From positions 92,467,482-92,531,481 of the forward strand of contig JAUZTB010000107.1 in the NCBI GenBank assembly GCA_034780895.1: a stretch of 64,000 nt of DNA. The letters are read 5' to 3'. This DNA comes from Rhynchobatus australiae (lineage: Eukaryota). This document shows, piece after piece, positions 20,130 through 64,000 of this stretch. How positions within the stretch are numbered: position 1 is the first letter of the stretch; every line of letters starts with the position of its first letter. The notes under the pieces are model-generated. The model saw nothing but the letters and a program-made list of their open reading frames with translations. It was not told where the DNA came from and made no database searches. The translations under genes were made by a program, and so were the position numbers.

Positions 20130-20215
20130 ACTGTCAAAGTGTACGAACAGTATGCAAGACAAGTTTTTCACTGTAACTCAGTGACAATAATAAACCAATA
20201 CCAATACCAACACCA
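20130..20215 (+). mobile_element. Rex1/Babar LINE 3' tail (same family as 30433-31032)
   Basis: gcaagacaagtttttcactg...gtgacaataataaaccaataccaata matches the reverse complement of 30433-30500. Confidence 0.75.
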
Positions 20216-30309: not shown

Positions 30310-31185
30310 CAATCTCATCTCTCCTATTCCACCACACCCCCTCATTTCCCTATACTCCTTCAACTTACTCCCTCTCCCTTTCTTGATTCTATTGCTACTT
30401 ACCTACATTAAGGGGTAATTTACAGTAGCTAAGTATTGGTATTGGTTTATTATTGTCACTTGTACTGAGGAGGTAAGTGAAAAACTTGTCTTGTATACCG
30501 ATCGTACAGGTCAATTCATTACACAGTGCAGTTACATTGAGTTAGTACAAATTGCATTGAGGTAGTACAGATTAAAACAATAACAGTACAGAGTAAAGTG
30601 TCACAGCTACAGAGAAAGTGCAGTGCAGGTAGTCAATAAGCTGCAAGGTCACAACAAGGTAGATCGTGATGTCAGAGTCCATCTCATCTTATAAGGGAAC
30701 CATTCAATAGTCTTATCACAGTGGGATAGAAGCAGTCCTTAAGTCTGGTGGAATGTGCCCTCAGGCTCCTGTATCTTCTACCTGATGGGAGAGGAGAGAA
30801 GAGAGAATGACCCGGGTGGGTGGGGACTTTGATTATGCTGGCTGCTTCACCAAAGAAGCGAGAGGTATAGACAGAGTCCAAGGAGGGGAAGCTGGTTTCC
30901 ATGACGTGCTGGTCTGTGTCCACAATGCTCTGCAGTTTCTTGAGGTCCTGGGCAGAGCAGTTGCTGTACCAAGCCACGATGCATCCAGATAGGATGCTTT
31001 CTATTGTGCATCGATAAAAGTTTGAGAGTGTCAAATTACCTATTTGTATGCATTTGTATGAGGAAATCAAGATTCCAGTAGAACTCCATGCAGTAACACA
31101 GAGAATGTATAACCACTACACAGGTAGCATCTGGTCAATATTAAACTTGGGTCCACAAAGCTGTGAGGACTAACTTTTGCATCAT
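30310..31185 (-). mobile_element. Old HE1/V-SINE-like element split by a Rex1 insertion (halves 30310-30432 and 31033-31185)
   Basis: ggggtaatttacagtagctaa on the left continues as aattacct...gaggaaatc...gagaatgtataaccactacacaggtagc on the right; reverse complement of the SINE at 63013. Confidence 0.6.
30433..31032 (-). mobile_element. 5'-truncated Rex1/Babar LINE (RT C-terminus, 3'UTR, (CCAATA)n tail)
   Basis: ORF 30684-31070: NFYRCTIESILSGCIVAWY...PTHPGHSLFSPLPSGRRYRSLRAHSTRLKDCFYPTVIRLLN, diagnostic of Rex1. Confidence 0.92.
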
Positions 31186-31383
31186 CTTGACAGCTACATT
31201 TGATTATTAACAGAAATTCTTCAGAAAAAGTTCTTTGCTTTATTTTTTCTTTCAGCCTCTTTCATGTCTCCCTCTCTCTCTCTNNNNNNNNNNNNNNNNN
31301 NNNNNNNNNNNNNNNNNNNNNNNNNNNNNNNNNNNNNNNNNNNNNNNNNNNNNNNNNNNNNNNNNNNNNNNNNNNNNNNNNNN

Positions 31384-31606
31384 CAGAGAGTGGTTGGTGC
31401 ATGGAATGCGCTGCCTGGGGTGGTGGTGGAGGCAGATACGTTGGACAGGTTCAAGAGATTATTGGATAGACATATGGAGGAATGTGGGATAGAGGGATAT
31501 GCAGGAGGAAAGGGTTAGATGGTGTGAGGTGTGGTTTGATGGTGGCACAACGTGGTGGGCCGAAGGGCCTGTACTGTGCTGTATTGTTCTATGGTTCTAT
31601 GGTTCT
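31384..31606 (+). mobile_element. Young CR1 LINE 3' end with (GTTCTATG)n tail
   Basis: QRVVGAWNALPGVVVEADTLDRFKRLLDRHM, then gtgggccgaagggcctgtactgtgctgta and ttctatggttctatggttct. Confidence 0.92.
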
Positions 31607-33374
31607 CACTTGTTTCCACGTTTCTTGCTTCCTTTCATGTTCTGCAACTTCTTCAGAGTATAATCGTGAATTTTATCGGGGAGTCTAAACTGAAATATAT
31701 TACTGCTAATTCAAAGATAACATAAATTAATTTTTTGGAGATTTTTCAAAAGAAAAACACCATTCCTTTTTTCAGCTAATAAATAGGGAATACTCATGAA
31801 AAGCCAGATCTAGGAGCTGCTTCACCAGCCAACTCTTTCATGTGTAGTTGAGTAGTTGCTTCTCACTACAAGGTTCCTGGCTCTCTAGAAATTGCACTTT
31901 ACTCACCAATGTAGATGGCTGACATTTCATTTCCCAGATTGCATACAACTTCCTTTTGTAAAGAATTATTGGAAGCATTTCTCAGTAAGTAGTTTACTGG
32001 AAAAAAACTGTTATACCCTGGAGTAGAAGCTATCTGATCTAGTTATTATCCTGTATTTACAACAAAGGGAACTGTATAGATCAAAGATTTTATTCAATCT
32101 AAAGGCATGGAAATTACTTACTCAACTTTGGTAGAGATAATTTACCTCAAATAAATAAATACATTGATCAGTTCAGTTAAAATATCTATACATTACATTA
32201 AAACACAATTGACACCACAGTTACAATTATATAGNNNNNNNNNNAATTGACCAAATATACGTTATAGTTTAACTTAAATTTAGAAACACAGAGCTGCAGG
32301 AAGACTTGCAGAGGGACATCTGACTTTGAAGCATCTCTTTTTATTGAAGTTTTTTTAGGTTGGAGGTGGAATTTGAGTGAGTGGTTGGCACAGAGATACA
32401 ACAATTCTGGTCATTCACCAAAATCTCTCCTTTGTCCTCTGGTTACGAAAGAAATATCAAACAGCACAACCATTTTTGTATGTCCCAACTGCCACTGCAT
32501 CCTTTTGTGTTATCAGTTCCATGACTTTGTGGGTGCAATTTTTTCCCATTGCAATATGGTGCAGATTGGGATTCTCTCAGCTACAGCTCCCACTATGTCT
32601 AATTAGCTGAGTGTCAAAATAATAATTAAAAGATTACATTCTATCATATTGCCTTGTTTCAATGAGTAATAAAAACAAAAGCAAACAAAGCTCATGCAGG
32701 TAAAGTGATTAGACTGAAAGGAGATTTTGGACATATCCTACTGCAACTAACAGTGTCTAGTCTCACCCATAAAGAGCCATTGGTGGAATCATACAAAGTA
32801 TTCCTGGGCATGACTATTGGCTTTCAAGAGAGAGCAGAATGAAATGAAAAAAAATATTTTGTCGCAGCTTATGGTGACATTTATTGAGGTCTGTGTTTGA
32901 AAACAACATGATTTTAATGCTAAAATAACATAACAGTGCTTTCATAAATGAGGTCAAACACAAGACTGAAATGGTGTAAAGTGGCTGAAGCCAATATTGT
33001 GATGAAATTGCTGATGACCTTTGCTGAAACTTACCTTCATGAAAGTTGAGATGACATTATGAAACATGAGCAAACTGTGTGGAGGAAGATTTTCACAGAG
33101 GCATATCAGAAACAATAAGGAGGTATTCACTGATTATGGCCAATAAAATAGAACAATGTTAATGACCAGAGAAAGCTCAGTTAAACATTTTGGTTAAGAA
33201 TTTACATTCAACATTTTCTACAGCAAGTGGAGACATATGGTGACATATTTGTTATTACTAACACATGATTGCAAACACCTGCTTCTACCATCTGCAAATG
33301 GTAGAGGAATGTTAATCCTCAGCATATAGCTTAAATTATTAACATTGCACTTGTGATGACAGATCATTTATTTG

Positions 33375-33450
33375 AAAGACTAACTGTGTTTCCCTCCCTA
33401 CAGATGCTGCTTGACCAACTGAGTATTTCCAGCACTTTCTGATTTACTTT
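33375..33450 (+). mobile_element. Penelope-like terminal repeat fragment
   Basis: acagatgctgcttgaccaactgagtatttccagcactttctg; related copies at 37370-37435 and 62690-62812 (minus). Confidence 0.55.
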
Positions 33451-34057
33451 CTGTGGAGACAAATATCAGATGTCAAGAAGGAAGGTGTGAAATCTTACAT
33501 AAAAGCAAATTTTACAGGGATCTGGTTACAGTATGGATTTGTAAACTGGTGAAGAAGTCAAATGTTATCACGTTACAACTGCAAGCAAAGTAAACCAACA
33601 ATGCTGTCCAGTGTTCTGGATTATTCAGCCATGTGACACTTCGGTAGAAGGAGCTGGAATTGTGTTTGGCTTTCTTCTCCACAACCTGTTTTCAAGTCCA
33701 GCAAGACTGTGGGAATAAAGTCTTCTCCCTCTTGTCATTCAGGCATCTTACGAGCATGAAGTTTCGTAAAATGTCAACCCTGGTCTTCTGTTAAGTGGGT
33801 GCATTGCACAAGCTGTTCTTGATTTGATTTTGAATTGCATTTTATTCACAGATTATAAGGAAGTTTGGGAAAGAGAAACATCATATTTGAAGGTGATCTT
33901 CCAAGGCTTGAGTTAAGTATGTTTTGGGAGCAGATTATTGAAAGCTTTACTCTGCAGATTCAATCCAATACAATATATCTGCTTGGTTCCAAATCTTGGT
34001 TCAGATCGGAATAATCTTCTGACTGAGGTAACTTTATCATGGTGGGCAATTTATATT

Positions 34058-34811
34058 TCAGAATCAGAATCAGGTTAATTATCACTGACATTTGTTGTGA
34101 AAATTGTCGTTTTGNNNNNNNNNNNNNNNNNNNNNNNNNNNNNNNNNNNNNNNNNNNNNNNNNNNNNNNNNNNNNNNNNNNNNNNNNNNNNNNNNNNNNN
34201 NNNNNNNNNNNNNNNNNNNNNNNNNNNNNNNNNNNNNNNNNNNNNNNNNNNNNNNNNNNNNNNNNNNNNNNNNNNNNNNNNNNNNNNNNNNNNNNNNNNN
34301 NNNNNNNNNNNNNNNNNNNNNNNNNNNNNNNNNNNNNNNNNNNNNNNNNNNNNNNNNNNNNNNNNNNNNNNNNNNNNNNNNNNNNNNNNNNNNNNNNNNN
34401 NNNNNNNNNNNNNNNNNNNNNNNNNNNNNNNNNNNNNNNNNNNNNNNNNNNNNNNNNNNNNNNNNNNNNNNNNNNNNNNNNNNNNNNNNNNNNNNNNNNN
34501 NNNNNNNNNNNNNNNNNNNNNNNNNNNNNNNNNNNNNNNNNNNNNNNNNNNNNNNNNNNNNNNNNNNNNNNNNNNNNNNNNNNNNNNNNNNNNNNNNNNN
34601 NNNNNNNNNNNNNNNNNNNNNNNNNNNNNNNNNNNNNNNNNNNNNNNNNNNNNNNNNNNAACACTACCTCGTTATTCCTCTTTTACACTATTTATTTATT
34701 TTTGTAACTTATAGTAATTTTTATGTATTTACATCTCGCACTGTACTGCTGCCATAAAACAACAAATTTCATGACATATGTCAGTGTTAATAAACCTGAT
34801 TCTGATTCTGA
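34058..34811. mobile_element. Two inverted Rex1-type 3' ends with (TCTGAT)n tails flanking an N-gap
   Basis: 34058-34114 is approximately the reverse complement of 34755-34811. Confidence 0.7.
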
Positions 34812-36464
34812 GGAAATATGGACTTGAGTGCATTGATTTTTATTTTGTTTAACACAAAGGGTAGGAATGCATCCTTCATTGATTGTGCTAAGTAGTGAGT
34901 ATGTGTTCAAATCCACTTCTGAATTTTGGTCTGTTAATGACAAAAACTGGATTTCTGAAGCAGAATGAAATCCTTGTGTGCTACTTTTTCACATGGTTGG
35001 CAAGTAACCAGGAAAGAATTTTTTACCCCTATGTATTAAATCTAACTTCAATTGGATTAATTGCAGCATGCTATAACTTTACAAATGAAACTATTGCCCC
35101 TTTGGATCATTGAAGTAAATCTGTTATGTTCAGATGGTTTTGGATCTGTTACATTTCCAGAGATTTCTGAACAGAGTGGGAACAACAGGAATGATTCAAT
35201 TTCTGAGCAATCATGAATGGGAAATTTATCATTTATTATTGTTTCTTTTGGATAGAATCATGAAGAAAATATCCACAGCACTCAGGCAGATCTTATAGTG
35301 AGAATGTTAGGTTCAACTTTTTTCAGACATGCCAAATGCTTGGCAGCAGCATATAAAAGGTCCCCTCCTCTCCTGCTTTCACCTGTTCCATATAGTCATA
35401 GAGTGGTAGACGTGATGCAGCAGCAATCAGTCACTGCCTTGGGGACAGTTCTGTCTAAGACAGAAGTCAAGATGAACCCAGACTAGTTCACCCAGAACTT
35501 CCCAGAACCCCTTGCAATTTAAAAAAAATATTGGAAACTCCAATATGGAGTTCCATTTATGGAGACAGGCAGCTCACAATATGCAGTAGTGAGCATTGAA
35601 GAACCCTCTGCCCCTGTCATCCAGTGAGAACCTTTTACACTTGAGAGTTTCATAGAATGTACCCTCAGTAATTGTCATGGTTCTGAGTACTGGCCCTTGA
35701 TTTGGCTCCTTACATGCCTTGTTATACAGCACATGGATTCCATGCTGAACTGATTGTATAATGACACACACCTGAGCCCCATCAGGGGCCTAGCATAAGT
35801 ANNNNNNNNNNNNNNNNNNNNNNNNNNNNNNNNNNNNNNNNNNNNNNNNNNNNNNNNNNNNNNNNNNNNNNNNNNNNNNNNNNNNNNNNNNNNNNNNNNN
35901 NCCTACTCAGATCTCTGAGGCAAGATTTCTTCCAGCTGCTGGTGGTGTTTGGTCCTGAGGAAGTATCCTGACTCCAGTGTGCTGCATTTGGGTTCTCTGT
36001 GAGCTTGCTCTTGCTCAACATTGTGATAGTAATTGCTCTTCAGTGGATAGAATGCTTATTAGATGATTACTTCTATCTAACATTGATGTGCTACCTGAGC
36101 CTACTACAGCTCATGAAAACTTTTTATATCCCACACTATTTTAGATCTCCATTGAAGTCAATGAAATTGAATGTTTAGTTCTGATGTCCAAAGATGAATT
36201 TCTACCTATTATTGCTTTGGAATGTTTGACTATTTTAAGGTGCTTTTTAAGTGCATGTTCTGCAATATGGGTAACATTGGCAAGAGGCTATTAGTTGCCC
36301 TAGGTGTGCTAATAATTAAGTTAACCATGTAGTGTGAGGCTGGTAGGAGAGACAGGTGTTTTTTTTTCCCCCACAGGTCTCTTTCCCCAGAGGAACTACT
36401 GGGTTTTTAATGGCGATCAGCCAATTCTCATGAGTGAAGAAGTCATGCCCCAAGTCTTTGGTGA

Positions 36465-36700
36465 GACCACAGCTAGAATACAATGTAGAGTTTTGCTCCC
36501 TTTATCTGAGAAGGGATGTATTTGGCTGAGAGGTAGTGTGGGAAGAAAGGTTGTGTTTTGAAGGATATTGAGCAGGATGGATCTGTGCTCACTGGAGCTT
36601 AGAAGAACGAGAGGTGATCTCAATGAAAGATGTAGGATTCCAAGAGAGATTAACAGGGCTGATGTTGTGAAGCTTTCTTCTCTAGATGGGCCCCTTACCT
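36465..36700 (+). mobile_element. Decayed CR1 fragment
   Basis: RPQLEYNVEF and SLELRRTRGDL motifs. Confidence 0.7.
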
Positions 36701-36999
36701 CAGAATAAGAACTTGACTGATTATGACTAATGAGGAAATATTTCAGAGTTAGGGTTAGAACCTCCTGCCAAGACCACGTGGGTAGAAACAGGTTTTCTCT
36801 GGACAAATCTTGAAACAGGGAAAAATGAAACAGTGACGGGGATATCTTGCACCTGTTTTGCCTACATCATTTCAACAGCTTAAATGACCTTGGGATATCA
36901 ATGAAAAAGTGCAAAACTGAAGTGGTAAATTGCAGTATTGCTTTGCAGAACACTTCTGTCCCGATTGCAAGGGTGATTGTGAACTTCTAATCACCCCTT

Positions 37000-37435
37000 A
37001 CTTTAATTCTCCATCCCTCTCCATTTTGATCCATGTCTGACTTCCTACACTGTTCCAGTGATGCCTAGCTCAAGCTCAAAAAAAAAGTACCTCCCCTTTG
37101 GCCTGCACATGTTTTAGGACTGGAGACTTAATATGGAATTCAACAATTTCAGGTAATAGCTTTTTCTTCTCTTCATATATGTTGCTGGATATTTTAATTT
37201 CAATGTGTTCTCTTCTCTTTCTTACACCTGTTTTTAAAGTAATAACTACCTTGACAAGTTTAGTTTGCATCCCATCACAAATATCCCTTCTGTCCTCCCT
37301 TATTCTACAATTTAAAATCCATTTGTTTTCTCACTTTGAGTTCTGATGGAAGGTTCTCAATCTGAAACACTGACAGTTTCTCCCTCTGTGGATGCTGTCT
37401 GGCCTAATGACTGCTTCTGCATTTTCTGTTTTTAT
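37000..37435 (+). mobile_element. Penelope-like element 3' end
   Basis: LNMEFNNFR* near 37125-37156 resembles the GIY-YIG C-terminus and is followed by the terminal repeat also seen at 33375. Confidence 0.55.
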
Positions 37436-40094
37436 TTACATTGAAAATGAAGAGGAGATTGGGTTGAAAAGTCAAACCAGAAAATGCTTCATTTTAAAAA
37501 TTCTCTTTCTATAACACATCTAAGCATTTGTTTACTCAAACTACCTTAGGACAGGAGTTTTGTATGTCTTATCACCTTTTGTATCTGGATTTTGTTTGTT
37601 GTTTTGCTCTGTGTGCAATGTGCCTGAAACCAGATCATCTACTATGTTGTATGACTTGCATATAATGTCACAACTTGGCTACATAGCCTCCAGACTTTCC
37701 AAATCAAAAGATGAAAGTCTATTATCCTCAATGCATGGATAAAAGGGGAAGCTCTGTCAATTCAGGAAGACAGGGCTTTTTTAATTAGTACTGTGACCAC
37801 ATATTAAAAACTGTCTCATATGTCCAAGGTAACCCATTCCCAATATTTAAATGCACACACATCCAAAGAGAATGGATCTGTGATTTACAATTTAAAGACG
37901 CATTTTATGAATTTTGCATTGTGCTATCTTCCATAAGATTCAGGTAGCCTAGACCACGTTCACCTCAATGCACTCTGCAAAATTTTTAAAGTTAATCATT
38001 CATTTCAGGTCTCTTTCCCCACCTCAGAATGGGTATTTTTGTCAAGGAAACAATGATAATGTTATTATTGACAATGAGATCCCATTGCATCTCCTGGGTG
38101 CTGCAAGAAGTCAGAGCATCAGGGGTTCTCCACTGAAAGAGGAAGCAACTCCACCACCCAACAGATTGGCTGATGAACATCAATTAGCTACCATGTGAAA
38201 ATCTGAGAACAGAAATTATAGTATTCTCCACTGCAGTAATGTGATGCATTTTGTGAAATATACATGTGTATCTTAAAACCAGTATCACCCATAACTTAAA
38301 TGTACAAAAGAAATAGCTAAACATATGGTTGCACCTGGAAACGATAGGGTCCTGAACTACAGACCTAGCCTACAAACCTCACCTTCCCCCATGGCTTTAC
38401 TCACTGGTTACATGTGATAGAAGCACTGTTATTGTCAGGAACAGCTCAGCACAGAATCTGTACCTTGATGAGGAGAATGACTTTACTATGTGGTTTTCCA
38501 AAGCATTTGTAGTTACAGGGTAAACTGTACAACAGAACACGCTAAATGGTACTGATCTGTGTGACCAATGGTCATAAAGTACAATACTCATGCTATTATC
38601 CTCAGAACTCATCTGGCATTGCAGCTTAAAATGTACTGTAGGAAGTTCATGCTCTATACAACAAACATGTTGAGGTATATTTAATAGTATTCTTATTCAA
38701 GACAGAGCATGATAATTTAATCAGCCAGGTGGAATTAATGCCAATTCCTACAACTTATTCTCCATTCATATTCTTGTTATCACAGCCCACATTCTGCAGT
38801 CTGCCTTCTGCAGTTCAACAATATGCATTGCTCATAGTCTCTAATTTACCTGCTGATAGGTTTTTGTTGGAATTCTTTTAAGTTTGACAATGACAGTATC
38901 TCTGATGGGCAACAAAATGAAAATTGTTGAAACATCTTTCCATGAAGTATGGTGACAATCCTTTACTAATTTTGTCATTTACTCACATCCATGGACTTTA
39001 AATGTTGGACTATAATTCAGAGTCTTCAAATGTGTTATGCTCGGTAGTACCATTTGACTCCCATTGACAAACACCCATCTATTTTTCTGCCCACGTACAA
39101 GTTATGAGTCAGGACTGAAAAGTCCCTGCCGACCAGTACATTTAAAGAAGCCACATGAACAAAACAGAATCGGCAGTGACCTCTAGAGTCAGCCTGGGAT
39201 ATATCTTTACTGTAAATCTGAATTCTGCAGAACTGAGCCAAAGTACTAAAACATGAACAGAATAACAGGGAGGCACTGTTTTAGTCATACTGAGGCATAT
39301 CTATCTTAATGTGAAGCTCTGATGAAGAGAATACTTAACAATTAGCAGGAAACTTGGTTACATGGTATAATATTTCTAAAGTTAAGTACATAGTAAATAC
39401 TTAGATTGTTCAAAGTGCATACAAGATTTTAAGATCAGTCGACCCCGGACTCTGAAATATTGATTCAGTTAACACTGAATAGCAAACTATAGCGATCTGA
39501 ACAAGACAAGGTCATGTGATCCTGTGTGATTTTGGAGACAAGTCGCAGACAGGAAAAGATTCAATAAGGTAGCTTAATAAATTTCCCAATTCAACAGAAC
39601 ATAGTCATACCATCCTACTTTCATTTGTTTAAAAACACCTGACAAATACATCAAATTGAGGGGACAATGGTGTAGGCATACTACTTCTTTAGAGGTGAGT
39701 GCAACTGAGATTGAACATAGGATTCAAATCCAGAGCAACTTACTTATCAGAAATACATAGATCAGGGGACCTGATTTCGTGGGAACACTGGAGTTGTATC
39801 ACACATTTTGTCAATAGTAGAACATAACTCTAAGAATATTTTGTAAAATCAATTCATTTGTATAATAGAGCCCAAACTGCAGGTCATCTATTGTGCCAAG
39901 AAAGTCCTGGGCAGCCTCTAATAACAATAAAACATTACCCTGGGGAGAAATATGTCCTTGTGTGTAGCCACTATAGATATATGATATTGGAAATCACTAT
40001 ATATTGAAATTAGTTTCTGAAATTTGAAGTAAATAGAACTAAATTTTGGAACCAAGTCGACATAAGGGAATGAATTCCTACATCCAAAGTTTTA

Positions 40095-41600
40095 TTTCAA
40101 CAGCATTTATAGTGTAGCAACATGTTCCAAATCACTTTGCAGAAGTATTATCAAATACATTTTGATACCAAGCCACAAAAGGAGATATTGGTGAGATGAC
40201 CCAAAGCTCGTTCAAAAAAAGTAGGTTTTTAAGGAACATCTCAAAAGATAAAAGTGGAAAATAGTGAGGGAATTCCAGAACACAGAGCCTTGACAGTTAA
40301 AGCAGAGCTACCAATGATGGAGGGATTAAGAGCATAACATATCGAGGCAAGAGTAGGCCATTTGGTTTCTCAAGTTTACTCCACCATTCCATCAGGTAAT
40401 GGGAGGTCAGAGCATTGGTCCCCTTTAAGAACATGTGAAATGAGAACAAGGTCATTCAGCTCCTCAAGTCTGCCCTGCTATTAAACCAGATCACAACTGA
40501 TCTTCTACCTCAAATGCCAATTTCCTGCCCTATCCCAATATCTCTCAATGTCTTCAACATATAGAAAGTTCTGGCTCTCTGCTTTGAATATAGTTAGTGA
40601 CTGAGCCTCTACAGCCCTCTTGCATTGCAAAAAGTCCCTACCATCTGGGTGAAGAATTTTCTTCTTACCTCAGTACTAAAAGACCATTCCCATATTTTGG
40701 GGCAGTAACTCTTGGTTGCAGACACCCCAGCCAGGGGAAGCACAATCCCTAAGTGTGCCCTGTCAATCTCCAAAAAGAAACAAGCAGATTTCAATGAGAC
40801 CACTTCTCAGTTTTCCAAGCTCAATTGAGTATAGCCCCGGTCTCCTCATTCACTCCTCACAGGAATCAATCTGGTGAGCCTTTGCTGCACTCTCTCTATT
40901 GCAAGTATATCCTTCCTTAGGCAGGGATAAGCAAGAAGCCAGCACTGGAGAAGCACCGAGATCTTGGAGGGTAAGAGGAGGTTACAGAAGTTGGAAGGGT
41001 AAATAAGATTGAAAAGTTGAAAATTAGATGGAGGATTTTAAAATAGATCAACCATAACCTCGTCAAATGGTGAAGCAAGCTTGAAAGGTCAATTGGACTG
41101 ACCTTGCTACTGTTTTTTACATTTTTGTAAAGGTGTTGCTTAACAGAGAGGCAAAGTTAGTCAGCTAGTACAGGGAAGATGGTGAAGAAGAATTGATGAG
41201 CTGAAGATCTAGATGATCTCAAGTTTGTGGATAGTGTAGTTACCAAGAGGTAACTATCGAATTGATGAGGGTTTGAGCAGGAGATACCTTTGATGGACTT
41301 AGAGAGAAGAATTATTACAAAACTGCCAATAGGCAGATTGATGATGGCGCAAAGTTTGTCTCAGAGTCAGGTATGAAATCAATGTAGAGTTTGGTTCAGT
41401 CTTGGGACAGATGCCCGACAGTGGATGGGGTCAGTGACTCTGGAACTAAGTTTGTGACAATGACTTCAGTCTACCTGACATTTAACTGGAGGAAGTTTCT
41501 GCTCATGGAATGCTGGATGTAGGCCAGCAATGTGACTGTCCATGGACACTGGGGAAAGGCTGGCGAGAGAGAATTGAGCATTGTGAGCGTATGTGTCGAT
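40095..41600 (-). mobile_element. Old L2-like LINE interrupted by CR1 pieces
   Basis: L2-like tail at 40095-40330 (gcatttatagtg...aagccacaaaaggagatattgg) resumes at ~40930 and ~41125. Confidence 0.5.
40333..40925 (-). mobile_element. CR1 fragments (two 3' tails)
   Basis: gagtaggccattt, taagaaca...ggtcattcagctcctcaagtctgcc, tctgggtgaagaattttctt, gcaagtatatccttccttagg. Confidence 0.75.
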
Positions 41601-42443
41601 GTGACACTGATTTTAGAAAAAACTGGGATGTAAAAAAAGCTTGAGTGGAAGCAGAGGCACAAGCAGGCGTAAACTGACCTGCCCTTATGACCGCTTATGA
41701 GTTGAGAGCCTTCCAAATTCTGGAGGCAGAGACAAGCAGAAGCCGAGGAGAGAAAGGGCAGAGACCTTCCTCTGGCTCATGATCATACTATCCTTTCCCT
41801 TTCTTTCTATCCCAACTCACTCACTCCATGCCATTGGAATGCTGAAGTATGCACACAGTCAGAAGGATTTTCTCTGTTTGCTGAAAGTTCAAAGTAAGTT
41901 TTAAATGAAAATCAAAGTGATAGACTCACCCCTGATTTTCCACCCTTTTGTTTTCTCCCCCATTGCTGCCCGAGGCATTGGTCTGACTCGAGTTTAAAAT
42001 ACATGTTAAATCAGAGTGTCTGTGATACATTGGGAGCCTCCTGCCCCACTGTTGCAAATTAAATATCCTACTTGGAAAAATTGTCATTGGTAAGTTTTTG
42101 CTCAAGTCATTGGTCAAAAAGCAGAGCGTCCGAGAAGGCAATTGAAAAGACTGGATTGCTTCACAAAAATAATAAAAACTGCATCAGTAGGTGAATACAT
42201 TGGCCTGTTGACCAGTCTCATGTCAAAGGCTAGGCCTCCCATTATATTTTCCAGGTGATCATTCTGCACATACTGCTGGCTGTCTTTCCAAATGGTAAAA
42301 ATCACACTGATTGACTTTTCTGTTTGCCGTGATATAATACTGGCAGCTTAACTGACAGTAAGATATGTTTTTCTGTAAGTTCTTGGGGTTCCAACCTGCC
42401 AGATCTGCATTGCACCCTATCTTCTTAAACTTTTATTTAAGAC

Positions 42444-42725
42444 AAGATTAAGAAATCTTTATTAGTCACATGTACATCAAAACACACAGTGAAATGCATC
42501 TTTGCGTAGAATGTGCTGGGGGCAGCCCCCAAGTGTCGCCATGCTTCCAGCGGCAACAAAGAATGCCCACAACTTCCTAACCTGTATGTCTTTGGAATGT
42601 GGGAGGAATCTGGAGCACCCAGAGGAAACCTACACAGACGTGGGGAGAACGTACAGACTCCTTACAGACAGTGGCCAGAATTGAACCTGGGTTGCTGCTG
42701 CTGTAAAACATTATGCTAACCGCTA
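42444..42725 (-). mobile_element. tRNA-derived V-SINE-like element with Rex1-like tail
   Basis: Reverse-complement match to 61560-61891 and 63619-63880; B-box-like ggttcaattc on minus. Confidence 0.85.
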
Positions 42726-42730
42726 TATTT

Positions 42731-42821
42731 ATACAGCACAGTAACAGGCCCTTCCAGCCCAACGAGCCCGTTCCACCCAATTACACCCATGTTAACCTAC
42801 TAACCTGTATGTCTTTGGAAA
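42731..42821 (-). mobile_element. Truncated SINE with CR1-type tail
   Basis: atacagcacagtaacaggcccttccagccc...taacctgtatgtctttggaa. Confidence 0.65.
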
Positions 42822-43244
42822 AAGCAGAAGTTGGGCCAAATAGAATTGTACACTCTGTACTGTAGTTAGATGAGTGCTAGTAACAATATTTCTTATATAA
42901 TATATGCACTGTACTTTCATAATCCAACCAAATTATTTTTATTGAAACTTTTCTTTCAGCACTTGTTATTATTCAGCTTGCAATCATTGATTGGACATGG
43001 CTAGAAATAAGGGGATAGTCACAGGAGGTATACATTATAATAGCAGAATCACTATTAGCAATTGCTGTCCGAAAATAAGAGGGCAGTGGTAATGGTCTGA
43101 AATTATTGAGCTAATTGTTTGAGCCCAGGCTGCTAGAAATGGGTGAGTGCTGCTCTTTAGGCTTCTGTTGAACTTCATTGGGAGACTGAGGACAGAGAGA
43201 TCAGAGTGGTATTGGGGTAGAGAATTGAAACCTGCAGAGAGTAA

Positions 43245-43700
43245 TGGACTCATCCCAATGCATCACAGGTACATTCCTCCCAACCATCGAAAGTATCCAC
43301 ATGAGGCACTGCCTCAAGAAGGCAACATCCATCATCAGAGATCCCCACCATGCTGCTTCTCGCAGCTACCATTGGGGTCTGAGGACCCACACCACCGGGT
43401 TCAAGAACAGCTACTTCCTTTCAACCGTTCTGTTCTTGAACCAACCTGTATAACCCTAATCACTACCTCAGTATAGCAATACTGTGACCGCTTTGCACTA
43501 TAATGGACTTTGGTTTTCATGTTCTAATTGTGTTCCTTATTGTATAGTTTTGTATAATTTATATTTAAATTATATTTTCCTTGTGAGTGTTGTATCTCTG
43601 ATGCTATGTGCCCGTGATGCTGGTGCAAGTAAGTTTTTCATTGCACTTGTGCATACATGTACTTGTGCATATAACAATAAATTCGACTTTGAGTTTGACA
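43245..43700 (+). mobile_element. 5'-truncated Rex1/Babar LINE, second subfamily
   Basis: ORF 43244-43453: ITGTFLPTIESIHMRHCLKKATSIIRDPHH...RTHTTGFKNSYF...FLN; 3'UTR ends aataaattcgactttgagtttga. Confidence 0.85.
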
Positions 43701-43838: not shown

Positions 43839-44060
43839 GTCTGCCCTTTCAGTTGAATGGAAGAGAACCTATGGCTCTAGTACAAAGAAAAATGAGTGAG
43901 TTCCTTCAGTGTTCTGGCCAACATCACTTAAAGACCTTTATTGATAACTATTGTTATTTATGAGATGTTAACATCTACAAATTGATTGCAGCATTTTTCT
44001 ATGATTCCAGAATGGTAATTTCTTAGAAGTAATTTGTTGACTTAGAAGCATTTCTATATG
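43839..44060 (+). mobile_element. Deu-domain SINE remnant (SacSINE1/AmnSINE1-like)
   Basis: gtctgccctttcagttga...cctatggctcta...gagttcc...gtgttctggccaac resembles the Deu core; related pieces at 45325-45480 (minus) and 52530-52745. Confidence 0.5.
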
Positions 44061-44599
44061 CATTGCGTAGGTGAGAGGCTGTATACCAATGCAAGCTTTT
44101 TTTAAACCCGAAATAAAAACAGGTTACTTGTTTATCATCTGACAGGATAAAATGTAAATAAAGTTCAGATACAAACCCTTAAGAAACATTGGTTTTGTTA
44201 CCCATAACACTTATTGTCAACTGACTCTTCTGCCACTGATGTTATCCTCAAGCTTCATTGTACCAAGCTGACTGGTACACTGATTTGAACATTTCAAATG
44301 AAAAGAAATCTCATTTTCTATTAACTGAAACCACAACCAGTTATTCTAATTGGCCTAACAACTACAGTATGGGCCTCAGGGGGAACCATTCCACAAATGT
44401 CGTCTCCCATTAGTGTCAACAGTTACACCAATCTGATTACATTCACATCAAGGAGGAGCAATTCTCATTTTTCTATAATGATTACTTACCTCATTTAATC
44501 ATTGGGAAAAATAAACAATTTAAATGTCAAAGTTAAACACTGGAGAAGATTCTAATCAACAAGATATTCACAAAGACTTCTTTGTCGCTATTTTCAATC

Positions 44600-47500
44600 C
44601 CATGAGTTTCAAATAAAAAGTGCAGAATTTGACTGAAAATTATTTTAAACCAGATAAGTACTTTAAACCTATGGATGCATCAACAATTTTTGCAAAAGAT
44701 TGCAATCTCAAAACAATAACTAGGTTTTATTCATATACATGCTGATGGACCAACTGTGTATTTACAGCATTTTCTACTTTTTTTACTTCAATATACCAGT
44801 ACCTGACAATAACAAACGGAGAACAACAATTAATGTATTTCCAAGACAATAACTTTAAAGATTGGACATGATCCAGCCAGATAACTAAACCAAACCAATT
44901 AAACTCCTTGGGTATTTGTTTCATTATCAATTGATCTAAGCATAGTAAAAACCACTTACCAAAATATAGGGAGCAATTACATGATCAAACTTTATCCATT
45001 TTAAGCAAATCCATACCAAACAGATCCAAACCTATCATCACTATATTCTGAAAGTATGTCCACATGAAATAACTCAAAAGTCACTAACAATTTAACATTA
45101 AAGTTTTCTGAACACAGTAATTTCTTCCATGTCTATCAATTTCAGATACATAAACAGCTTTGTATCACACTGTTACAAATTCATCAACTATTTCACATTA
45201 AAGAAACCCAAAGTCAGCATTAATTCTGCACATATCTACTTCAAACTCATCAATAATCCATGGCAAACACAACATCCAAATAAGAACCAATGTGGAAATA
45301 TGTAGCATCTTTGTTCTAAAGCATTTCACAGGCGATTAGTCTTGAAATGTAGTCACTGGTGATATGCAGACTTAACAGCCATTTGCACATAGCAAGTTCC
45401 CACATACTATAATTAAATGAAAAACCAGTTCACATGGTTTGTTTATGTGGGTTGAGGGATGAATTGAGAATTGATAGAGGGTTTGTAATCATTTAATCTG
45501 GAAAAGACAATGATTTTTGTAAAGGAAATATGAAATTAGCAGTGAGTTTGGAGTAACTGCCTTTAATGATTCTAAATGACAAGATGGCAATTCTAAATTG
45601 AACCATCAATTCAAAACACTCCAAAATGATTCACAAATCCACATCTCACTATTCCAGATGAAGAAATGCCAAAACCATTTACACTGCTACATTAATTCCA
45701 TGTCCAACTATTGCAAACTTATAAATAAGTCAGCACTCAGGAGATGATAAGCTCAACAATCCATATCAATTGCACACCAGTTATTTCATATTTACAGTGA
45801 ATTGCACAGCATAAGATTTTAAAATCACTTCTAGTTCTGAATTAATCCCACATCCAAAAATAAATATTACCTACTATCCCAGATCAATTAATGCAAATTT
45901 TCTGGCAGTTCACAACAAATGATTTCAAATTTGTTGGCAATTCTAAATCAGATGAATACAGAAATAATTATTCCATATGTTCTGTATATTCTTGTCTTTG
46001 GGGGATCTTAAACTTCATCTAATTCATTGATAATTCCATATTTCACTTCATACTTACAGATCAAATCACTGAAAGTTGCACATGTATTAAACTTAACTTT
46101 ACTGATAATTCCAAATGAAACTGAAATGCAGGGCAGTTCATGAATAAACTAATTATATTTACAAAGAATTGGGAATCACAGCTGACTTTCTGTATTTTTC
46201 CAAACTGAATGATTGCTGTATGTCTGATTGGCCAAACAATTCAGCTTGAAATTGTTACAACTGATTTTCGAGTAATGCATAGAATTTTGATCAATCCAAT
46301 TCTTCCTAGATTTAACATGGGAAGCAATTGTGGTTAAAGTTTTTCCAACTTTCTAAGATATTTCATTGTAAACAGCTCTACATGTCTCATATCCAAAAGA
46401 GCAACCTCTTGTTAGATTATTCTCAACTCTTTCCTTTCAATTTATTATAAATAATAAAGTTTCAGTCAAATTTATTAATAAATTCTTCAAGTGAAAACAC
46501 TTGAACAGCAAACAGTCTCTCAGATTTACAGAAAAGAAAAGGAAGATAGCTTGGAACAGAATTGTTTGCACAGATATACCCAAATCTCCATTGAATTTTT
46601 AAAAAATTATTCTAATTTACTTTCATCTATTGCAAATAATTCCATGTCCAAAATGATTTAAGTTCCAAATAATTCATTATTTCCAAACACTGGTTCTAAA
46701 CAAATTACATTTTTTTAAACCATTGAAATAATTTCAGTCAAATCACGCTAGGCCATTTATGTAAAACCATCCCAACTGTTCTGCATTAATCCACTTGAAA
46801 ACTTTGCACTAGTCTAACAATTCCTTTGTAATCTCTTCAGACCATTTCTTAACAAATTATTTTGAATGTTTCCTCTTTCAGCTAACACAAACAAACCTAT
46901 AAAAAGCTCTTTATAATGTGTTGGATTATCATCTTAATCTAAGCAAATGAATATCAAATTATTCTAACTTATTTCCTATCAAAGAATTCCAAACAATTTC
47001 TTCATACCAGTCTAAAACACACAATTAATTAAATTACCTAACTACTCCAAATTACTTCAAACATTTTTAGAGCATATAATTCCCTCGGAATGCACCTAAT
47101 CATATTAAATTATACCAAATTGACAAAGAAAATTGAACAAATGCATAACATAATTTGTTCACTGAACAATTTAAATCAAACTCAGATCTCAGCAAACAAC
47201 AACACCACCCTCCCATCAATATTTTATATCTCGGTTGCATACTACACAATCCCATATCTGGTAATTTCCCTTCTAAACAAATCTTCGCAAACTATTCCGT
47301 GCAAATACCATAGAAACCAGCTCATCAGCTCATAAAACAATTATCTGAAAAATAATTTCATGTGAAATTATTTAACATCAAATGTTTTAGAATCAATCTT
47401 TTCTGGCATATTAAACAGCTTTTTGTAATTGTTTAAAAACTATTTCCAATTAAACAATTTCACATCAACCTATTTCAGCAGTTCCCAATTCAAACATTTC

Positions 47501-48960
47501 CTCATCAATGTATTCCATAATTAACAATCAAACACCAAAATAATCCCCCATCAAACAATTCTTTGGCAATTCCTTCTCATGCAATTCTCTGTGCAAATGA
47601 CTCTTGATCAACAATGTTAACTGTTCCGCTGCAGAGTATTTGAATAATTCCCCACAGAAAATTATTCTCCTCCAAACAGTTCATGATCAAGCATTCAGAT
47701 AAATTAAAATAAAAAAACACAAAACAATTCCCACTCAGCAAACTTTAAGTAATTCTCAATTTCTTATTAAGATATTTCCTTGTAAATAATTTCCTATCCC
47801 AGAATAATTTAATTACAAACAATTTGTATTCAAATAATTATATTTAGGACATTTCTGCTCAAATATTTTCTTATTAAATTATTCCACGTTTAATTTCCAA
47901 ATCATTCAAAAGAATCACTTCAGACAATTTCCAAACTTTCCAATAATTTAGCAAATGTTTCCAACAAATACTTCTTTTAAAAATAATGTAATAGTTAAAA
48001 TGAATCCTAATCAAATATTTAAATTATTTTCCAACAAACTTTTCTACTGATACATCATAAAATAACAGACATATTTAAATGTTTTTAATTCCATTACACA
48101 TTACTCAATTCAAACTATTCTCTTATTCTTAAAAATGTCACAACAAATCAATCCAAATTATTTAATGACCAACTAATCAAAACATTCTCCCAATCAAATG
48201 TTGAACCTGAGCTGTAATTCTGTCCAGTCATTCTGTAACAATATTCAAATAATTAACTGGAGAACATTTGCTGCCAAACTATTCCATATAAAACTATTTC
48301 ATATCAAACCATCCCCTACTTTCTGCAGTCTAAATTATTATTCAATCAACTCTCCATGAAAACATATAATTAATCATATATATTTTAAATACTTGTATCA
48401 GTATATTCAAACACATACAAAGAAGTATTCAATTTCCTATCAGTATTTTCCAAGCAATTCCCAAACTACTTGAAACAATTCCCAAATATTCTAAATAATT
48501 CCATATGAAACTATTCCACATCAGAACATTGCATGCATTAATTTTCAATGAATGTGCTGTAATCTTACGAGTAGTTTCCTATTTGCTTCCAACTTATTAA
48601 ATTATTCCACAACAATTCCAGATTAAATTACTGCAAACAATTACTGCACACAAATTCTTATTATGTGGTTCTAAACATGCAAGCATTTCTTTATTAAACT
48701 AATATATATTTTAATTAGGATATTTTATCAGCCTATCTTAACCACTTCCTCATTAAGCATCCTGAATAATATATCTCTTACAATTCCATACCACATTGTA
48801 CTGCATATTTCTGACCTCATTGTTGACTGAAAACCTTGCCAACAAAAATCCTATTCAACCATTCTGAACAATTTCTTTGTAAATATTGAGATGGTTCAAT
48901 ACGAAATTGTTTACATGCTGATAGACAGAGATTGCAACCACGATGCATTCCAAATAATGG
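44600..48960. repeat. Degenerate ~15-bp tandem array, G-poor on plus (approximate consensus AAACAATTCCACATC)
   Basis: Recurrent aaacaattcc/aaactattcc/aaataattcc units, e.g. aaactatttccaatt aaacaatttcacatc and aaacatttcctcatc at 47437-47496. Confidence 0.7.
45325..45480 (-). mobile_element. Deu-domain SINE 3' remnant
   Basis: gaaatgtagtcactg...cagccatttgcacatagcaagttcccaca...ggttgagggatgaatt. Confidence 0.55.
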
Positions 48961-51059
48961 CATATTCAGAAGTCTGCAACATTTTCATAATTCACCATTA
49001 GAAACCTTTTGACAATCTGTGTCAAATTACAGGAAAAACAGAACAGTGCCACCGTATATGAGTTAAAATTCAATTACTAGTTAGAGCTTCTGAGTTGCAG
49101 GGAGCTGATGTAAATCACAGATATTTATACGGCTCAATTAATGACAGAGTTGGATAAGTACGAGTTCAAACATTTGGCTGTGGGGTATAAAATGTATTGT
49201 GAGATATGATACTTCCCAGACACTGGGACCCACCAGGTGAATCACCACATTCTTTACCATTCCTGGGCATTCCTAATTTCCCATCAAATTCAGTCTCAGA
49301 ATGCCACAGCAGAACTCTTTTTCCAGAGTCAGGAGAATTACACATACAGTAAATAATTTTTATTATTAGCAGAAAACAACAGAACTTGAAGTAAATAAAA
49401 AATCCCACTATTCAGGAGGCAAACACTGAACTACATAGCCCCCTGATGTCTCTGCTTTAGTCTTTTGCCTGTGCTGGATTAGCTAACCTCAGCTGGAGCC
49501 AGGGTTCGGCTGTAGATTGCTAACAGTAGCCTCAGTTTCCCTAAGTGGGGAAGGGAAAAAGGAAGAAATCATATTTAAGATTATGCATTTGGTCTAATCC
49601 ATTCCGAGCCCACTGTCAATGTGAAAGTTTTGTCCTCGATGTTCCCTAACTTGATAATTCAATCTGACATCTCAGGAAAAGGTGTTTGCAATTTAGTGCT
49701 GATAAATTGCTACAATCTCAGATGTAGTATTGACATACTAGTCCTATTGCCACCTCCTGTCCCACTGGGAGACCTATAGACGCTAGGAAGTTTCCCAAGG
49801 TTATAGAGTAGTCAATTACTATTTTCAAGTGTGATATCACAACAAAACGTTCATTATCTCATGTGTCAGAATTAAGACCATTTTATTTTAAGACATTTAC
49901 TAATCAATGAAAGAGATAACTCTCAGTATTAATAGTTCTCTTTAAAAATAATGTAATAAAACTAACATATAAAAAAATTCCAATCTAATTCCTTGGTCGA
50001 ACTACCTCCTTTATCATTGTCTCACACAGACAATTCTATGGAGCAGCGGGTAATTTGATACCATTTGGGTAACTGTGTTGGAACACACTGATGACAGGTT
50101 CTACCATGTTACTTCAAGCAAACAAAAAATATGTGAGAAGACTGGCACAGCCATAAACACACATGTTCAATGGTTGTAAACTGCCAAAGAAACATAAACA
50201 GATAAGGGCAGGGAAGGGTGGGATTGCAGTGGAAATACTGATATTTTCAGCTGACAATGGAAATTTACCGAATGCCCTAATAGGTATTGTTTCTATAACA
50301 AAAGAGGACAGTTCAGGCCTTTGTGGTCCGGCACAGGTTTGAGGGATTTCCAGACAGGCCATTCAAAAGCCATACCATCCACTCGGAAGCTGAGGAGGTG
50401 GTAACCCCAGTTCTCCCCACTGAGCTCTCTGCTGGCTCAGAGTAAGATATTACATTATACAAGCCTTTAAGGCATTCAGTTGTGTGTGACATGGCTTTAA
50501 TAACTGTCAATGCAATGTAAAAAGAATCTAATTTAAGATGTTTTAGAGTAGGATTAATCTTGAAACCTGAGTTCCATCACGCTAACCAAAGCAGCCATTT
50601 GGTACATGGAGCTTCTTCCACTGCAGCCAGAATGAAACTAATAGCAGTGCTTAAAAGAGCTTTGTCATTGCAGGGAAGTCAGCAAGTTAGTTTTTTGTTA
50701 CTGTTTATACTGGGGCATATCAGACAGTGGTAAATGACTTTTTTATTTGAAGCAAGCACGATTTTGATGTAGCTTCCTATCAATACATTACATGTTTGCA
50801 GGCAAGGATGAAAAGCTAACTTGTTATATATCATTATTATACTCTGATTAAGTTCATTTTCCAGCGTAGAGAGTAAGAGTGAAACTTTGTATAAGAGCGA
50901 GACAAATATATTTGGATTTAAGGTTCATTTTTATATAAAATTGCAAGTTTCTATTGCACAATATTTGATCAAACTAAACATGTGTCTTGTGCAGGCACAA
51001 ATTGACCACCTGAAATAAATGATTTTGTAACTCATGATCAACTGAACAAATTATTCTGC

Positions 51060-63618: not shown

Positions 63619-63880
63619 TGGTAATGTCGCAGTTAGCATAACTCTATTACAGTGCCAGTGACCCGGTTTCAATTCTGGCTGCTATCTGTAAGGAGTTTGC
63701 ATGTTCTCCCCGTGACTGTGTGGGGGTGCTCCAGTTTCCTCCACATTCCAAAGACGTATGGGTTAGGAAGTTGTGGGCACGCTATGTTGGCACCAGAAGC
63801 CTGGTGACACGTGGGCTACCTCAAGAGTACGCAAAAAATGCATTTCATTGTGTGCTTTGATGTACCTGTGACTAATAAAG
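63619..63880 (+). mobile_element. V-SINE-like element with Rex1-like tail
   Basis: Colinear with 61560-61891; ends catttcattgtgtgctttgatgtacctgtgactaataaag. Confidence 0.85.
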
Positions 63881-64000
63881 TTAGTCTTTTGTGATTGATA
63901 TTGAATTGACCATTATAATATATATCTCCTGGCTTTGACTCTGCATAGCTCAACAAGGGTTCTTCAATCAACTGGTTGAGAAGTCATGTTGCTGCTGCCC

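Follow-up and report, generated by a model that had tools for sequence, protein, structure and literature searches.

The window, the whole 64,000-nucleotide stretch of Rhynchobatus australiae DNA that was analyzed, contains three Rex1-type LINE 3' ends, termed copies A, B, and C, together with terminal fragments of further copies. Their features, in window coordinates, are the following.

20140 to 20208, plus strand: terminal fragment of another lineage A copy.
30433 to 31040, minus strand: copy A, a 5'-truncated Rex1-type LINE of the young subfamily A2.
30684 to 30686, minus strand: stop codon of the copy A open reading frame (ORF) remnant, followed by the 3' UTR (30446 to 30683) and a hexamer tail (30433 to 30445).
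30655 to 30662, minus strand: proximal let-7 position of copy A, homologous with the B and C sites.
30637 to 30644, minus strand: position of a family-level miR-18 8mer (GCACCTTA), with one base changed in copy A.
30583 to 30627, minus strand: family-level word cluster of copy A, with a miR-148/152 word (30621 to 30627), two family-level miR-17 words (30615 to 30621 and 30594 to 30600), and a miR-101 word (30583 to 30589).
30558 to 30567, minus strand: distal let-7 site (lineage A) of copy A, matching let-7 nt 1 to 10, with the 8mer at 30558 to 30565.
30446 to 30480, minus strand: terminal stem-loop of copy A with AATAAA.
34061 to 34114, minus strand: terminal piece of a further lineage C copy with its tail outwards, lying across an N run from copy C.
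34660 to 34811, plus strand: copy C, a lineage C 3' UTR with its hexamer tail.
34664 to 34670, plus strand: proximal let-7 7mer-m8 of copy C, with the stop 11 nt upstream (3 nt in subfamily C3).
34683 to 34690, plus strand: decayed miR-130/301 8mer of copy C, after which the family has an AU-rich TATTTAT element.
43229 to 43699, plus strand: copy B, a 5'-truncated Rex1-type LINE of lineage B.
43457 to 43459, plus strand: stop codon of copy B, followed by the 3' UTR (43460 to 43681) and a hexamer tail (to 43699).
43449 to 43470, plus strand: bipartite let-7 site of copy B, with the 8mer at 43463 to 43470, 3 nt past the stop.
43475 to 43485, plus strand: miR-137 and miR-144 words of copy B.
43493 to 43500, plus strand: family-level miR-130/301 8mer of copy B, 33 nt past the stop.
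43637 to 43681, plus strand: terminal stem-loop of copy B with AATAAA, holding a chance miR-130 7mer (43641 to 43647).

Tail, domain order, and relatives form the basis of the putative Rex1-type label. In the window, the copies break off below the reverse transcriptase (RT), and a Pfam search of the copy A peptide returned no family. RT-matching stretches reach the same 3' ends in other genomic copies, and homologues contain PF00078 and PF09004. The coding part of copy C is absent or hidden by the N run (34115 to 34659), and its identity was taken from its relatives. Candidate relatives in the genome number at least 4805 for copy A, at least 1852 for copy C, and at least 5211 for copy B. CR1-like 3' ends in the same genome, which we take to be CR1, differ from the Rex1-type ends. 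Hexamer tails are present in A, B, and C, which fits the 5- to 7-nt tandem repeats that follow the Rex1/Babar 3' UTR in passages of PMC4635592. The Rex1/Babar non-LTR retrotransposons in passages of PMC4635592, PMC6274825, and PMC13343379 are alike in RT, conserved 3' UTR, this type of tail, and high ray coverage; these passages describe no microRNA site, and PMC13343379 lacks the word "miRNA." A literature search whose coverage left out most subscription journals found no report of microRNA sites in Rex1. Viral contigs probed for relatives gave 73 pattern matches and no relative.

Every seed match listed by the first-pass annotation lies at the position and on the strand it assigned. Each element was compared with its 29 other best-matching copies in the genome (the best 30 of 40 scored matches, a sample biased towards the query). 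There, the let-7 8mer behaves as a family feature, being present in 22 of 29 A copies and 21 of 29 B copies. The lineage C site is a 7mer-m8 in 18 of 29 copies and an 8mer in 13 of 29, the last base of the 8mer belonging to a decaying CpG. The miR-130 8mer is likewise a family feature (16/29 B and 14/29 C copies), and the tttacacta of copy C, noted earlier as one change away from it, is a decayed real site. Lineage A copies share the miR-17 7mer-m8 (18/29), the miR-17 7mer-A1 (21/29), and the miR-148 word (25/29); in copy A, positions 30583 to 30620 are a 20-nt tandem duplication. The miR-101 word occurs in 21 of 29 A copies, but the older A1 majority sequence lacks it; within lineage A it is restricted to A2/A3, and it is also found at one place in E. 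Other listed words did not prove to be element features: miR-137 (5/29 B copies only) and miR-144 (0/29) are minority or private changes, and the miR-130 7mer at 43641, which sits in the terminal stem, ends in T in 5 of the 17 copies having the word, copy B included. Each of the three UTRs does carry a let-7 site, as claimed, but not independently, the sites of B and C being one ancestral stop-adjacent position. In copy A this position is broken, as it is in A2/A3, while it is intact in the older A1 majority sequence; the intact site of copy A is the second, distal one, in which the upstream pairing of lineage A with let-7 nt 10 to 13 is mutated. The miR-18 8mer position of lineage A is the place of the miR-130 8mer in B, C, D, and E.

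Sampling of 224 Rex1-type 3' ends from the ray genome yielded six lineages (A to F), a sub-lineage near A being taken together with A1. The lineages form one clade; synonymous sites between them are near saturation, and the 3' UTR bodies are unalignable among four groups (A, C, B/D/E, and F). All words were ranked without a seed list. The let-7 match CTACCTC was the sole 7-mer common to all six lineages, and the let-7 and miR-130 8mer sites, CTACCTCA and TTGCACTA, were the sole 8-mers found in at least four of the six. The base preceding the let-7 word varied (T in 3, A in 3, and C in 1 of seven lineage-level sites), as expected of conservation confined to the seed. Fourfold sites unchanged across A1, C2, and B numbered 5 of 29, so that about 0.0007 intact 7-mers would be expected per 150 nt, the fourfold-site counts being small (29 to 40 for the main pairs). 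Conservation of the let-7 match is beyond neutral, bounded at the seed, and present on the sense strand only. The control comparisons proposed earlier agreed: the antisense strand of 10 subfamily UTRs held none of the annotated words, and none of the let-7, miR-130, and miR-17 words was found in three CR1 ends or three SINE families; no L2 3' end was recognized in the sample. A SINE with a Rex1-like terminal is without the words, yet it multiplies. The ray genome encodes let-7, miR-130, and miR-17/18/19/20 hairpins (Rfam), with mature ends inferred from known vertebrate arms.

These data bear on whether the words were inherited from one ancestor and survived by chance, the seed matches being recognized post hoc. 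The single clade, the shared ancestral position of the proximal site, and the small fourfold-site counts are in line with this, and for miR-137, miR-144, and the 43641 word it holds. The minute neutral expectation and the unalignable UTR bodies argue against it, as do the two surviving 8-mers, which are both exact 8mer sites, and an independent enrichment in other animals (see below). We consider chance inheritance improbable and already largely refuted; shared ancestry, raised as a caveat at the outset, holds but does not account for the retention of the sites.

All seven lineage-level let-7 sites, six of which are one ancestral position, form runs of 4 or more uninterrupted pairs that include let-7 nt 11 to 13 at offsets of +3 to +6, compared with 0.03 to 0.09 per random flank and 0.01 to 0.22 per shuffled own flank. 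The pairing spans nt 11 to 16 in B (+5) and D (+4) and nt 11 to 14 in lineage C (+6); the B site extends across the stop codon, and copy B itself retains nt 11 to 14. An A lies opposite let-7 position 1 in 4 of the 7 sites. The geometry of the 3' pairing is close to that published as best for let-7a, for which passages of PMC8940178 report that nt 11 to 16 pairing at +4 is particularly effective. Predicted pairing of the let-7 word within the RNA was 0.06 to 0.50 and fell below the UTR mean at each of 11 sites. That the word forms one side of an RNA structure required for reverse transcription is hardly credible given these values and the SINE that has a Rex1-like end without it; the terminal stem-loop exists, but it holds the 43641 word, to which the structural role suggested earlier does apply. 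Upstream Arg-Tyr codons and other stretches were considered as partners of the let-7 word and rejected, no partner being common to the sites. Pyrimidine-rich words tend to be unpaired anyway.

The let-7 word lies 2 to 3 nt from the stop in B, D, E, F, and C3, 11 nt in C1/C2, and 22 nt (proximal) and 110 to 121 nt (distal) in lineage A. Sites within roughly 15 nt after a stop codon are blunted by ribosomes; the sites of B, C, D, E, and F fall inside this distance, the A sites outside it, and the miR-130 sites (22 to 73 nt after the stop) all beyond it. Since Rex1 is described in part of PMC13343379 as having no ORF1, its ORF may be translated in the ordinary way, which would put the stop-proximal sites within ribosome reach. 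Such a position, 2 to 3 nt from the stop in five subfamilies, is odd for ordinary repression, and raises the possibility that these are real microRNA sites directly helping the element. A silencing complex at the stop codon would favor particle assembly in germ cells, by shutting translation after one round, by stabilizing the RNA, or by sending it into germ granules or P-bodies. The same conservation evidence applies, direct gain would explain retention without host-level selection, and in Caenorhabditis elegans germ-line miRISC stabilizes targets near P granules (passages of a review, PMC6357968). We nevertheless consider direct help, by all these routes jointly, rather unlikely: the distance from the stop varies (2, 3, 11, 14, 22, and 118 nt), the SINE multiplies without sites, a site-less A variant recurs, and AU-rich decay elements, which fit destabilization, are co-enriched in other animals.

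This last result comes from 33 non-redundant Rex1-type UTRs of other animals. Against dinucleotide shuffles, the miR-17 8mer (6 versus 0.32 expected) and the miR-130 8mer (5 versus 0.62) were enriched (0/400 for each), and both stayed so against 4-mer-preserving shuffles (6 versus 2.06, 6/400; 5 versus 1.49, 2/400). AU-rich elements were present in 18 of 33 UTRs versus 3.5 expected, and all three enrichments were on the sense strand only. let-7 was found in just 3 of 33 UTRs, against 0.5 expected, and ranked 155th among 3791 words. An A followed the miR-17 word GCACTTT in 9 of 14 cases (p ~0.002), but position-1 A was not enriched after miR-130 (5/16) or miR-19 (4/11) words; in the ray genome an A followed the miR-130 word TTGCACT in 5 of 6 cases (p ~0.002; B, D, and E are related). 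Alternatively, the words could be protein-binding or localization motifs resembling seeds, with their TGCAC core acting as the UGCAC germ-plasm signal bound by Rbpms. Passages of PMC4798249 report that Xenopus nanos localization and Hermes/Rbpms binding need UGCAC repeats; TGCAC is found in 22 of the 33 UTRs versus 12 expected, four to five times in lineages A and D and one to three times in B, C, and E, and GCAC plus one base matches some seed almost always. This explanation is quite unlikely, leaving CTACCTC and its 3' pairing unexplained; the 8mers, unlike TGCAC, remain enriched with 4-mer counts fixed, and E has one GCAC and the first 102 nt of F have none. The nanos1 mitochondrial-cloud signal, as described there, resembles the Rex1 ends in its repeated UGCAC within a 3' UTR and differs in having neither the let-7 word nor the 8mer extensions. 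MicroRNA and Rbpms functions could overlap.

The first-pass annotation further proposed that Rex1 spreads ready-made microRNA-site cassettes. Thousands of copies carry the words, Rex1-type copies are transcribed in a related species, and L2-derived target sites are known in human (PMC6433296). That the host keeps the sites as regulatory cassettes in gene 3' UTRs is nonetheless very improbable. Across a random sample of dispersed copies, agreement with the majority is 0.881 in let-7 columns versus 0.879 in other UTR columns, which indicates neutral decay and speaks against spreading as a selected function; whatever selection acts on dead copies, it cannot maintain a word in the source lineages; and 25 candidate frames of the window, a survey short of full annotation, gave no Pfam match for a gene around the three copies. 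Bulk host co-option was rejected, the let-7 columns of dead copies showing no excess conservation.

Losses of the site were also observed. Six of 36 A2/A3 copies have one common change that breaks the distal let-7 site in addition to the lost proximal one, and the same change accounts for 40 to 55% of the RNA reads covering this place in a related species; its recurrence suggests that a let-7-less A branch was probably amplified. The RNA came from three raw stranded runs of one study, of tissue not known. The distal let-7-breaking base was commoner in sense than in antisense reads (55/40, 53/43, and 47/44%), ranking 1, 1, and 7 among the 40 listed differences, of 260, and the proximal let-7-making base was poorer in sense reads. 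However, a neutral marker of the old subfamily shifted equally (odds 0.52, 0.62, and 0.81). The skew is suggestive, leaning as predicted for site-dependent repression, but is confounded with subfamily. For lineage B, at low depth, the miR-130 letters had no consistent skew, and the let-7 position was not among the 40 of 69 differences listed.

Collectively, conservation far above neutral, its restriction to the seed, 3' pairing, and a position-1 A signature at some of the words support the proposal that Rex1 retains host microRNA sites: judged from sequence, the let-7 and miR-130 words of ray Rex1 are probably selected microRNA target sites. If they are, somatic restriction would be their likelier purpose, and we give about even chances to the full account, in which selected sites reduce Rex1 RNA or protein in somatic cells while sparing germ-line copying. 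In the replicating lineages the let-7 seed match has stayed exact, with the miR-130 8mer kept alongside it in four of the six, while the surrounding 3' UTR diverged. Argonaute would bind at these sites, and repression would follow. let-7 is expressed in differentiated cells and miR-130, miR-17, and miR-18 in dividing embryonic cells, and the words could cover both. In the germ line, repression is predicted to be weak, and the element would still be copied; source copies that are quiet in the soma would be less harmful to the host, persist longer, and give rise to more copies. A broader and more tentative suggestion is that Rex1 writes itself a host-style decay code, with sites kept and re-invented, AU-rich elements, germ-line-only activity, and a switch valid in any new host. 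Its source lineages would be selected to hold canonical sites for the most conserved vertebrate microRNAs, namely let-7 with optimal 3' pairing, miR-130, and miR-17/18; the seeds of these are identical in all vertebrates, so the switch would work in new hosts, which could help account for Rex1 being transferred horizontally more than any other CR1-group LINE.

Transposon control by microRNAs is commonly seen as a host defense to be escaped, for which one base change suffices. A site kept by multiplying lineages through near-saturated divergence points instead to an element that restrains itself or makes use of the silencing machinery, and bears on germ-line confinement of LINEs and on the frequent crossing of Rex1 between species. 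The lineages also provide a natural series of let-7 sites in which the 3' pairing is conserved. The closest known case is human LINE-1, which let-7 represses via a site in ORF2 (passages of PMC7658363, where action of miR-128 on L1 is also cited): the same microRNA acts on LINE RNA as a proposed guard of the soma, and a ribosome-traversed site can work. The human site, a non-canonical offset 7mer, shows poor conservation in mouse L1, is missing from zebrafish L2s, and was interpreted as host defense, whereas ray Rex1 has a canonical bipartite site that lies at or after the stop and that its own lineages have kept across near-saturated divergence. Human L2 and miR-28 (PMC6433296) are alike in that a LINE 3' region carries and scatters target sites, but that microRNA is element-derived and dead copies were co-opted. 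In ray Rex1, the microRNAs are ancient host genes, and selection would act on source lineages. Zebrafish miR-430 reportedly (Mishima, 2006) clears germ-line mRNAs from the soma. Its targets have 3' UTR sites confining RNA to the germ line, as proposed for Rex1, and its GCACTT core is shared with the words enriched in other animals, but they are host genes. Some RNA viruses keep host microRNA sites that limit their tissue range; there, as would apply to Rex1, a parasite is selected to retain a repressive site, though as an infectious agent rather than a genomic retrotransposon.

The three Rex1-type LINE 3' ends in the window, copies A (30433-31040, minus strand), B (43229-43699, plus strand) and C (34660-34811, plus strand), are 5'-truncated members of abundant families, with at least 4805, 5211 and 1852 candidates, respectively, in the 2.2-Gb genome of Rhynchobatus australiae. 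By identity, the nearest named proteins come from rays (73-75%), and Rex1 coverage is reported to be highest in rays (PMC13343379). Copy C shows its UTR alone, preceded by an N run, and its coding end was supplied by relatives. The first-pass annotation had proposed let-7 sites together with clusters of other miRNA seeds in these UTRs, and each seed word is present where claimed. For each element, retention was counted in its 29 closest other copies, a sample skewed in favour of the query: 22/29 A and 21/29 B copies retained the let-7 8mer, 18/29 C copies the let-7 7mer-m8, and 16/29 B and 14/29 C copies the miR-130 8mer. The miR-137 and miR-144 words of copy B recur in only 5/29 and 0/29 of its relatives, and the miR-130 7mer at 43641 lies inside the terminal stem as a minority variant. 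These low counts indicate that this part of the proposed clusters is noise, while the let-7 and miR-130 sites are real at the family level. Elsewhere in the window, lineage C ends at 34061-34114 and 34660-34811 form an inverted repeat facing outwards across a 545-nt N run; a copy of an unclassified repeat family (repeat cluster 21) at 35758-36032 is interrupted by an N run; and a 6-kb low-GC stretch (0.29-0.33) at 44001-50000 has no long ORF and a strongly negative GC skew (-0.17 to -0.36).

Sampling covered 160 evenly spaced 10-kb segments of the genome plus targeted loci, in which a coding-end profile found 236 Rex1-type 3' ends; 224 were kept after a length and N filter. Six clusters, lineages A to F, account for 208 of these (A, 76; C, 50; B, 37; D, 29; E, 9; F, 7), with singletons left out; lineages E and F each derive largely from six short pieces chosen by likeness to one copy, and the UTR of F is known over 102 nt only. 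In a tree without F, the five lineages with sufficient coding sequence form one clade against outside elements. The UTR bodies of B, D, and E can be aligned with one another (z, 12-40), whereas those of A, C, B/D/E, and F scarcely can (z, 0.5-3.8; C-F, 7.0). Agreement at fourfold-degenerate sites is 0.32 between subfamilies A1 and C2 (34 sites), 0.43 between A1 and B (35 sites), and 0.49 between C2 and B (37 sites), and 5/29 such sites are invariant over all three.

When all words were ranked over the six lineages without a seed list, CTACCTC was the sole 7-mer common to 6/6 lineages, and CTACCTCA and TTGCACTA were the sole 8-mers in at least 4/6. The conserved words are the let-7 7mer-m8, the let-7 8mer and the miR-130/301 8mer; the neutral expectation is ~0.0007 intact 7-mers per 150 nt, indels ignored. 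The base preceding the let-7 word varies across lineages, so that conservation ends at seed position 8. At the position of the miR-130 site, lineage A carries a miR-18 8mer and lineage F a miR-17 7mer-A1 instead. The same genome holds seven let-7 loci above the cut-off, and also encodes miR-130 family hairpins and a miR-17/18/19/20-type cluster, mature ends being taken from known vertebrate arms. Two of the seven let-7 loci (L253 and L257) begin with A, not U, and differ in their 3' half.

None of the annotated words occurs on the antisense strand of 10 subfamily UTRs. The let-7, miR-130, and miR-17 words were likewise absent from three ends and three tRNA-type families that we take, from the look of their sequences, to be CR1 and SINE, and from one further repeat; one miR-101 and one miR-144 word were found in these controls. 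The terminal of one SINE family is Rex1-like (z, 9.4 against A1 and 10.9 against the outside Rex1-type locus L304; one CR1 end, 5.7), and this family is without let-7 and miR-130 words. Its copies in the window are as follows.

Copies of the tRNA-type SINE with a Rex1-like end (last 50 nt resembling the Rex1 terminal stem-loop and tail)
42438-42706, minus strand
61699-61888, plus strand
63644-63888, plus strand

Judging from this likeness, Rex1 probably mobilises the SINE; since the SINE is site-less, this suggests that the miRNA sites are dispensable for recognition by the reverse transcriptase. The let-7 word is predicted to be unpaired in the RNA. In random dispersed copies, let-7 columns match the majority no better than other UTR columns (0.881, 612/695, versus 0.879, 7818/8892), which argues for selection on source lineages and not on dead copies.

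Outside this genome, 89 loci of host-animal DNA from metagenome and MAG records were collected, 68 with an ORF end and downstream sequence and 39 with a recognisable terminal, giving 33 non-redundant groups, some of which may be linked by distant homology. Among these loci, L375 to L383 are animal Rex1-type LINEs in contigs of bacterial genome assemblies, that is, host contamination. The top 7-mers are of two kinds, AU-rich words, TATTTAT being the most enriched (18/33 versus 3.6 expected), and GCAC words, namely TTGCACT (11 versus 2.4), TTTGCAC (10 versus 2.3), and GCACTTT (9 versus 1.5); they occur 0-1 times on the opposite strand. In lineage C, TATTTAT comes after the miR-130 site. Against 3-mer- and 4-mer-preserving shuffles, the miR-17 8mer (6 versus 2.06; 6/400) and the miR-130 8mer (5 versus 1.49; 2/400) were still enriched, with P values uncorrected for the 13 words tested, while the let-7 word was present in 3/33 UTRs (0.5 expected; 3/400 shuffles). 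The let-7 site is thus a mark of the six-lineage clade and a few others, whereas miR-17 and miR-130 words are widespread in Rex1-type UTRs. A UGCAC localisation signal, as described in PMC4798249, may account for some of the GCAC core; it does not account for the let-7 site, and we consider it quite unlikely to explain the words.

An unplanned check of 3' pairing revealed that at 7/7 lineage-level let-7 sites an upstream run of at least 4 bases pairs with let-7 nt 11-13 plus an adjacent base, at a register offset of 3-6 nt. Composition gives a chance of 0.03-0.09 per site, and shuffling of each flank 0.01-0.22; six of the seven sites represent one ancestral position and are not independent draws. 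In lineages B and D the pairing extends over nt 11-16, at offsets of +5 and +4, respectively; in B, D, E, and F the pairing bases are the final ORF codons, with differing amino acids and frame. Among outside sites, the upstream pairing of the L304 site involves nt 12-17 with offset 0, and two sites in L297 have no notable upstream pairing. The ancestral, proximal site lies 2-3 nt past the stop codon in B, D, E, F, and C3, 11 nt in C1/C2, and 22 nt in A1. The ribosome shadow after a stop codon covers the 2-3 nt and 11 nt distances of B, C, D, E, and F, which counts against these proximal sites, although let-7 acts on L1 from a site within ORF2 (PMC7658363). Pairing of nt 11-16 at +4 is reported to be particularly effective for let-7a on seed-mismatched sites, with 4-bp pairing preferring +2 (PMC8940178), and g11-g16 pairing to be required in vivo (PMC9161110).

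In lineage A, the younger subfamily A2 and A3 have lost the proximal site, and a recurrent change at 30561 breaks the distal site (30558-30565, minus strand) in 6/36 A2/A3 copies (L008, L010, L012, L017, L024, and L232); the let-7 site is therefore not indispensable. A related DNA run shows this change at ~20% of contig depth, and in RNA of another relative it accounts for 40-55% of reads; its carriers are possibly an escape subfamily. Three raw RNA runs of a related species, from one study, were mapped on copy A, with read direction set by reference to a zinc-finger exon whose strand is known. Sense reads contained the base breaking the distal site more often than antisense reads did (odds, 1.85, 1.53, and 1.14); it ranked 1, 1, and 7 of 40 listed differences, with 220 further differences outside that list. 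The base restoring the proximal site was poorer in sense reads (0.59, 0.77, and 0.97). Both skews run in the predicted direction, but the shift at a linked and neutral old-subfamily marker is just as large (0.52, 0.62, and 0.81), and the signal was not consistent in lineage B. Sense depth fell short of antisense depth in lineage A (0.80-0.90 at its site) as well as in lineage B (0.42-0.69 at its site), as intronic orientation bias would equally yield. The strand skew is a lead only. In one run (X19), ~6300 reads join the Rex1 terminal (30433-30470, read antisense) to one other sequence, indicating that one strongly expressed transcript in the related species contains a Rex1 end in antisense orientation.

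We give about even weight to the proposal that miRNA-loaded Argonaute on Rex1 RNA restricts the element in somatic cells while sparing germ-line copying. Argonaute with let-7, miR-130 or miR-17-family guides would bind Rex1 RNA and, together with the AU-rich elements, cut its lifetime or translation in somatic cells. Early embryos contain little let-7. In growing oocytes, as reported for mammals, miRNAs are too dilute for repression (PMC7430632); repression would thus be weak in the germ line and early stages, copying would continue there, and quiet source copies would persist. The main rival, that the silencing complex is recruited to Rex1 RNA for the element's own benefit, seems to us unlikely. 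In the literature searched (few subscription journals), we found no report that Rex1 carries conserved miRNA sites or that any LINE is under selection to retain such sites. Transposon-derived miRNA target sites are already known for L2 (PMC6433296), and let-7 control of a LINE is already known for human L1, where it proceeds via a non-canonical, poorly conserved site.
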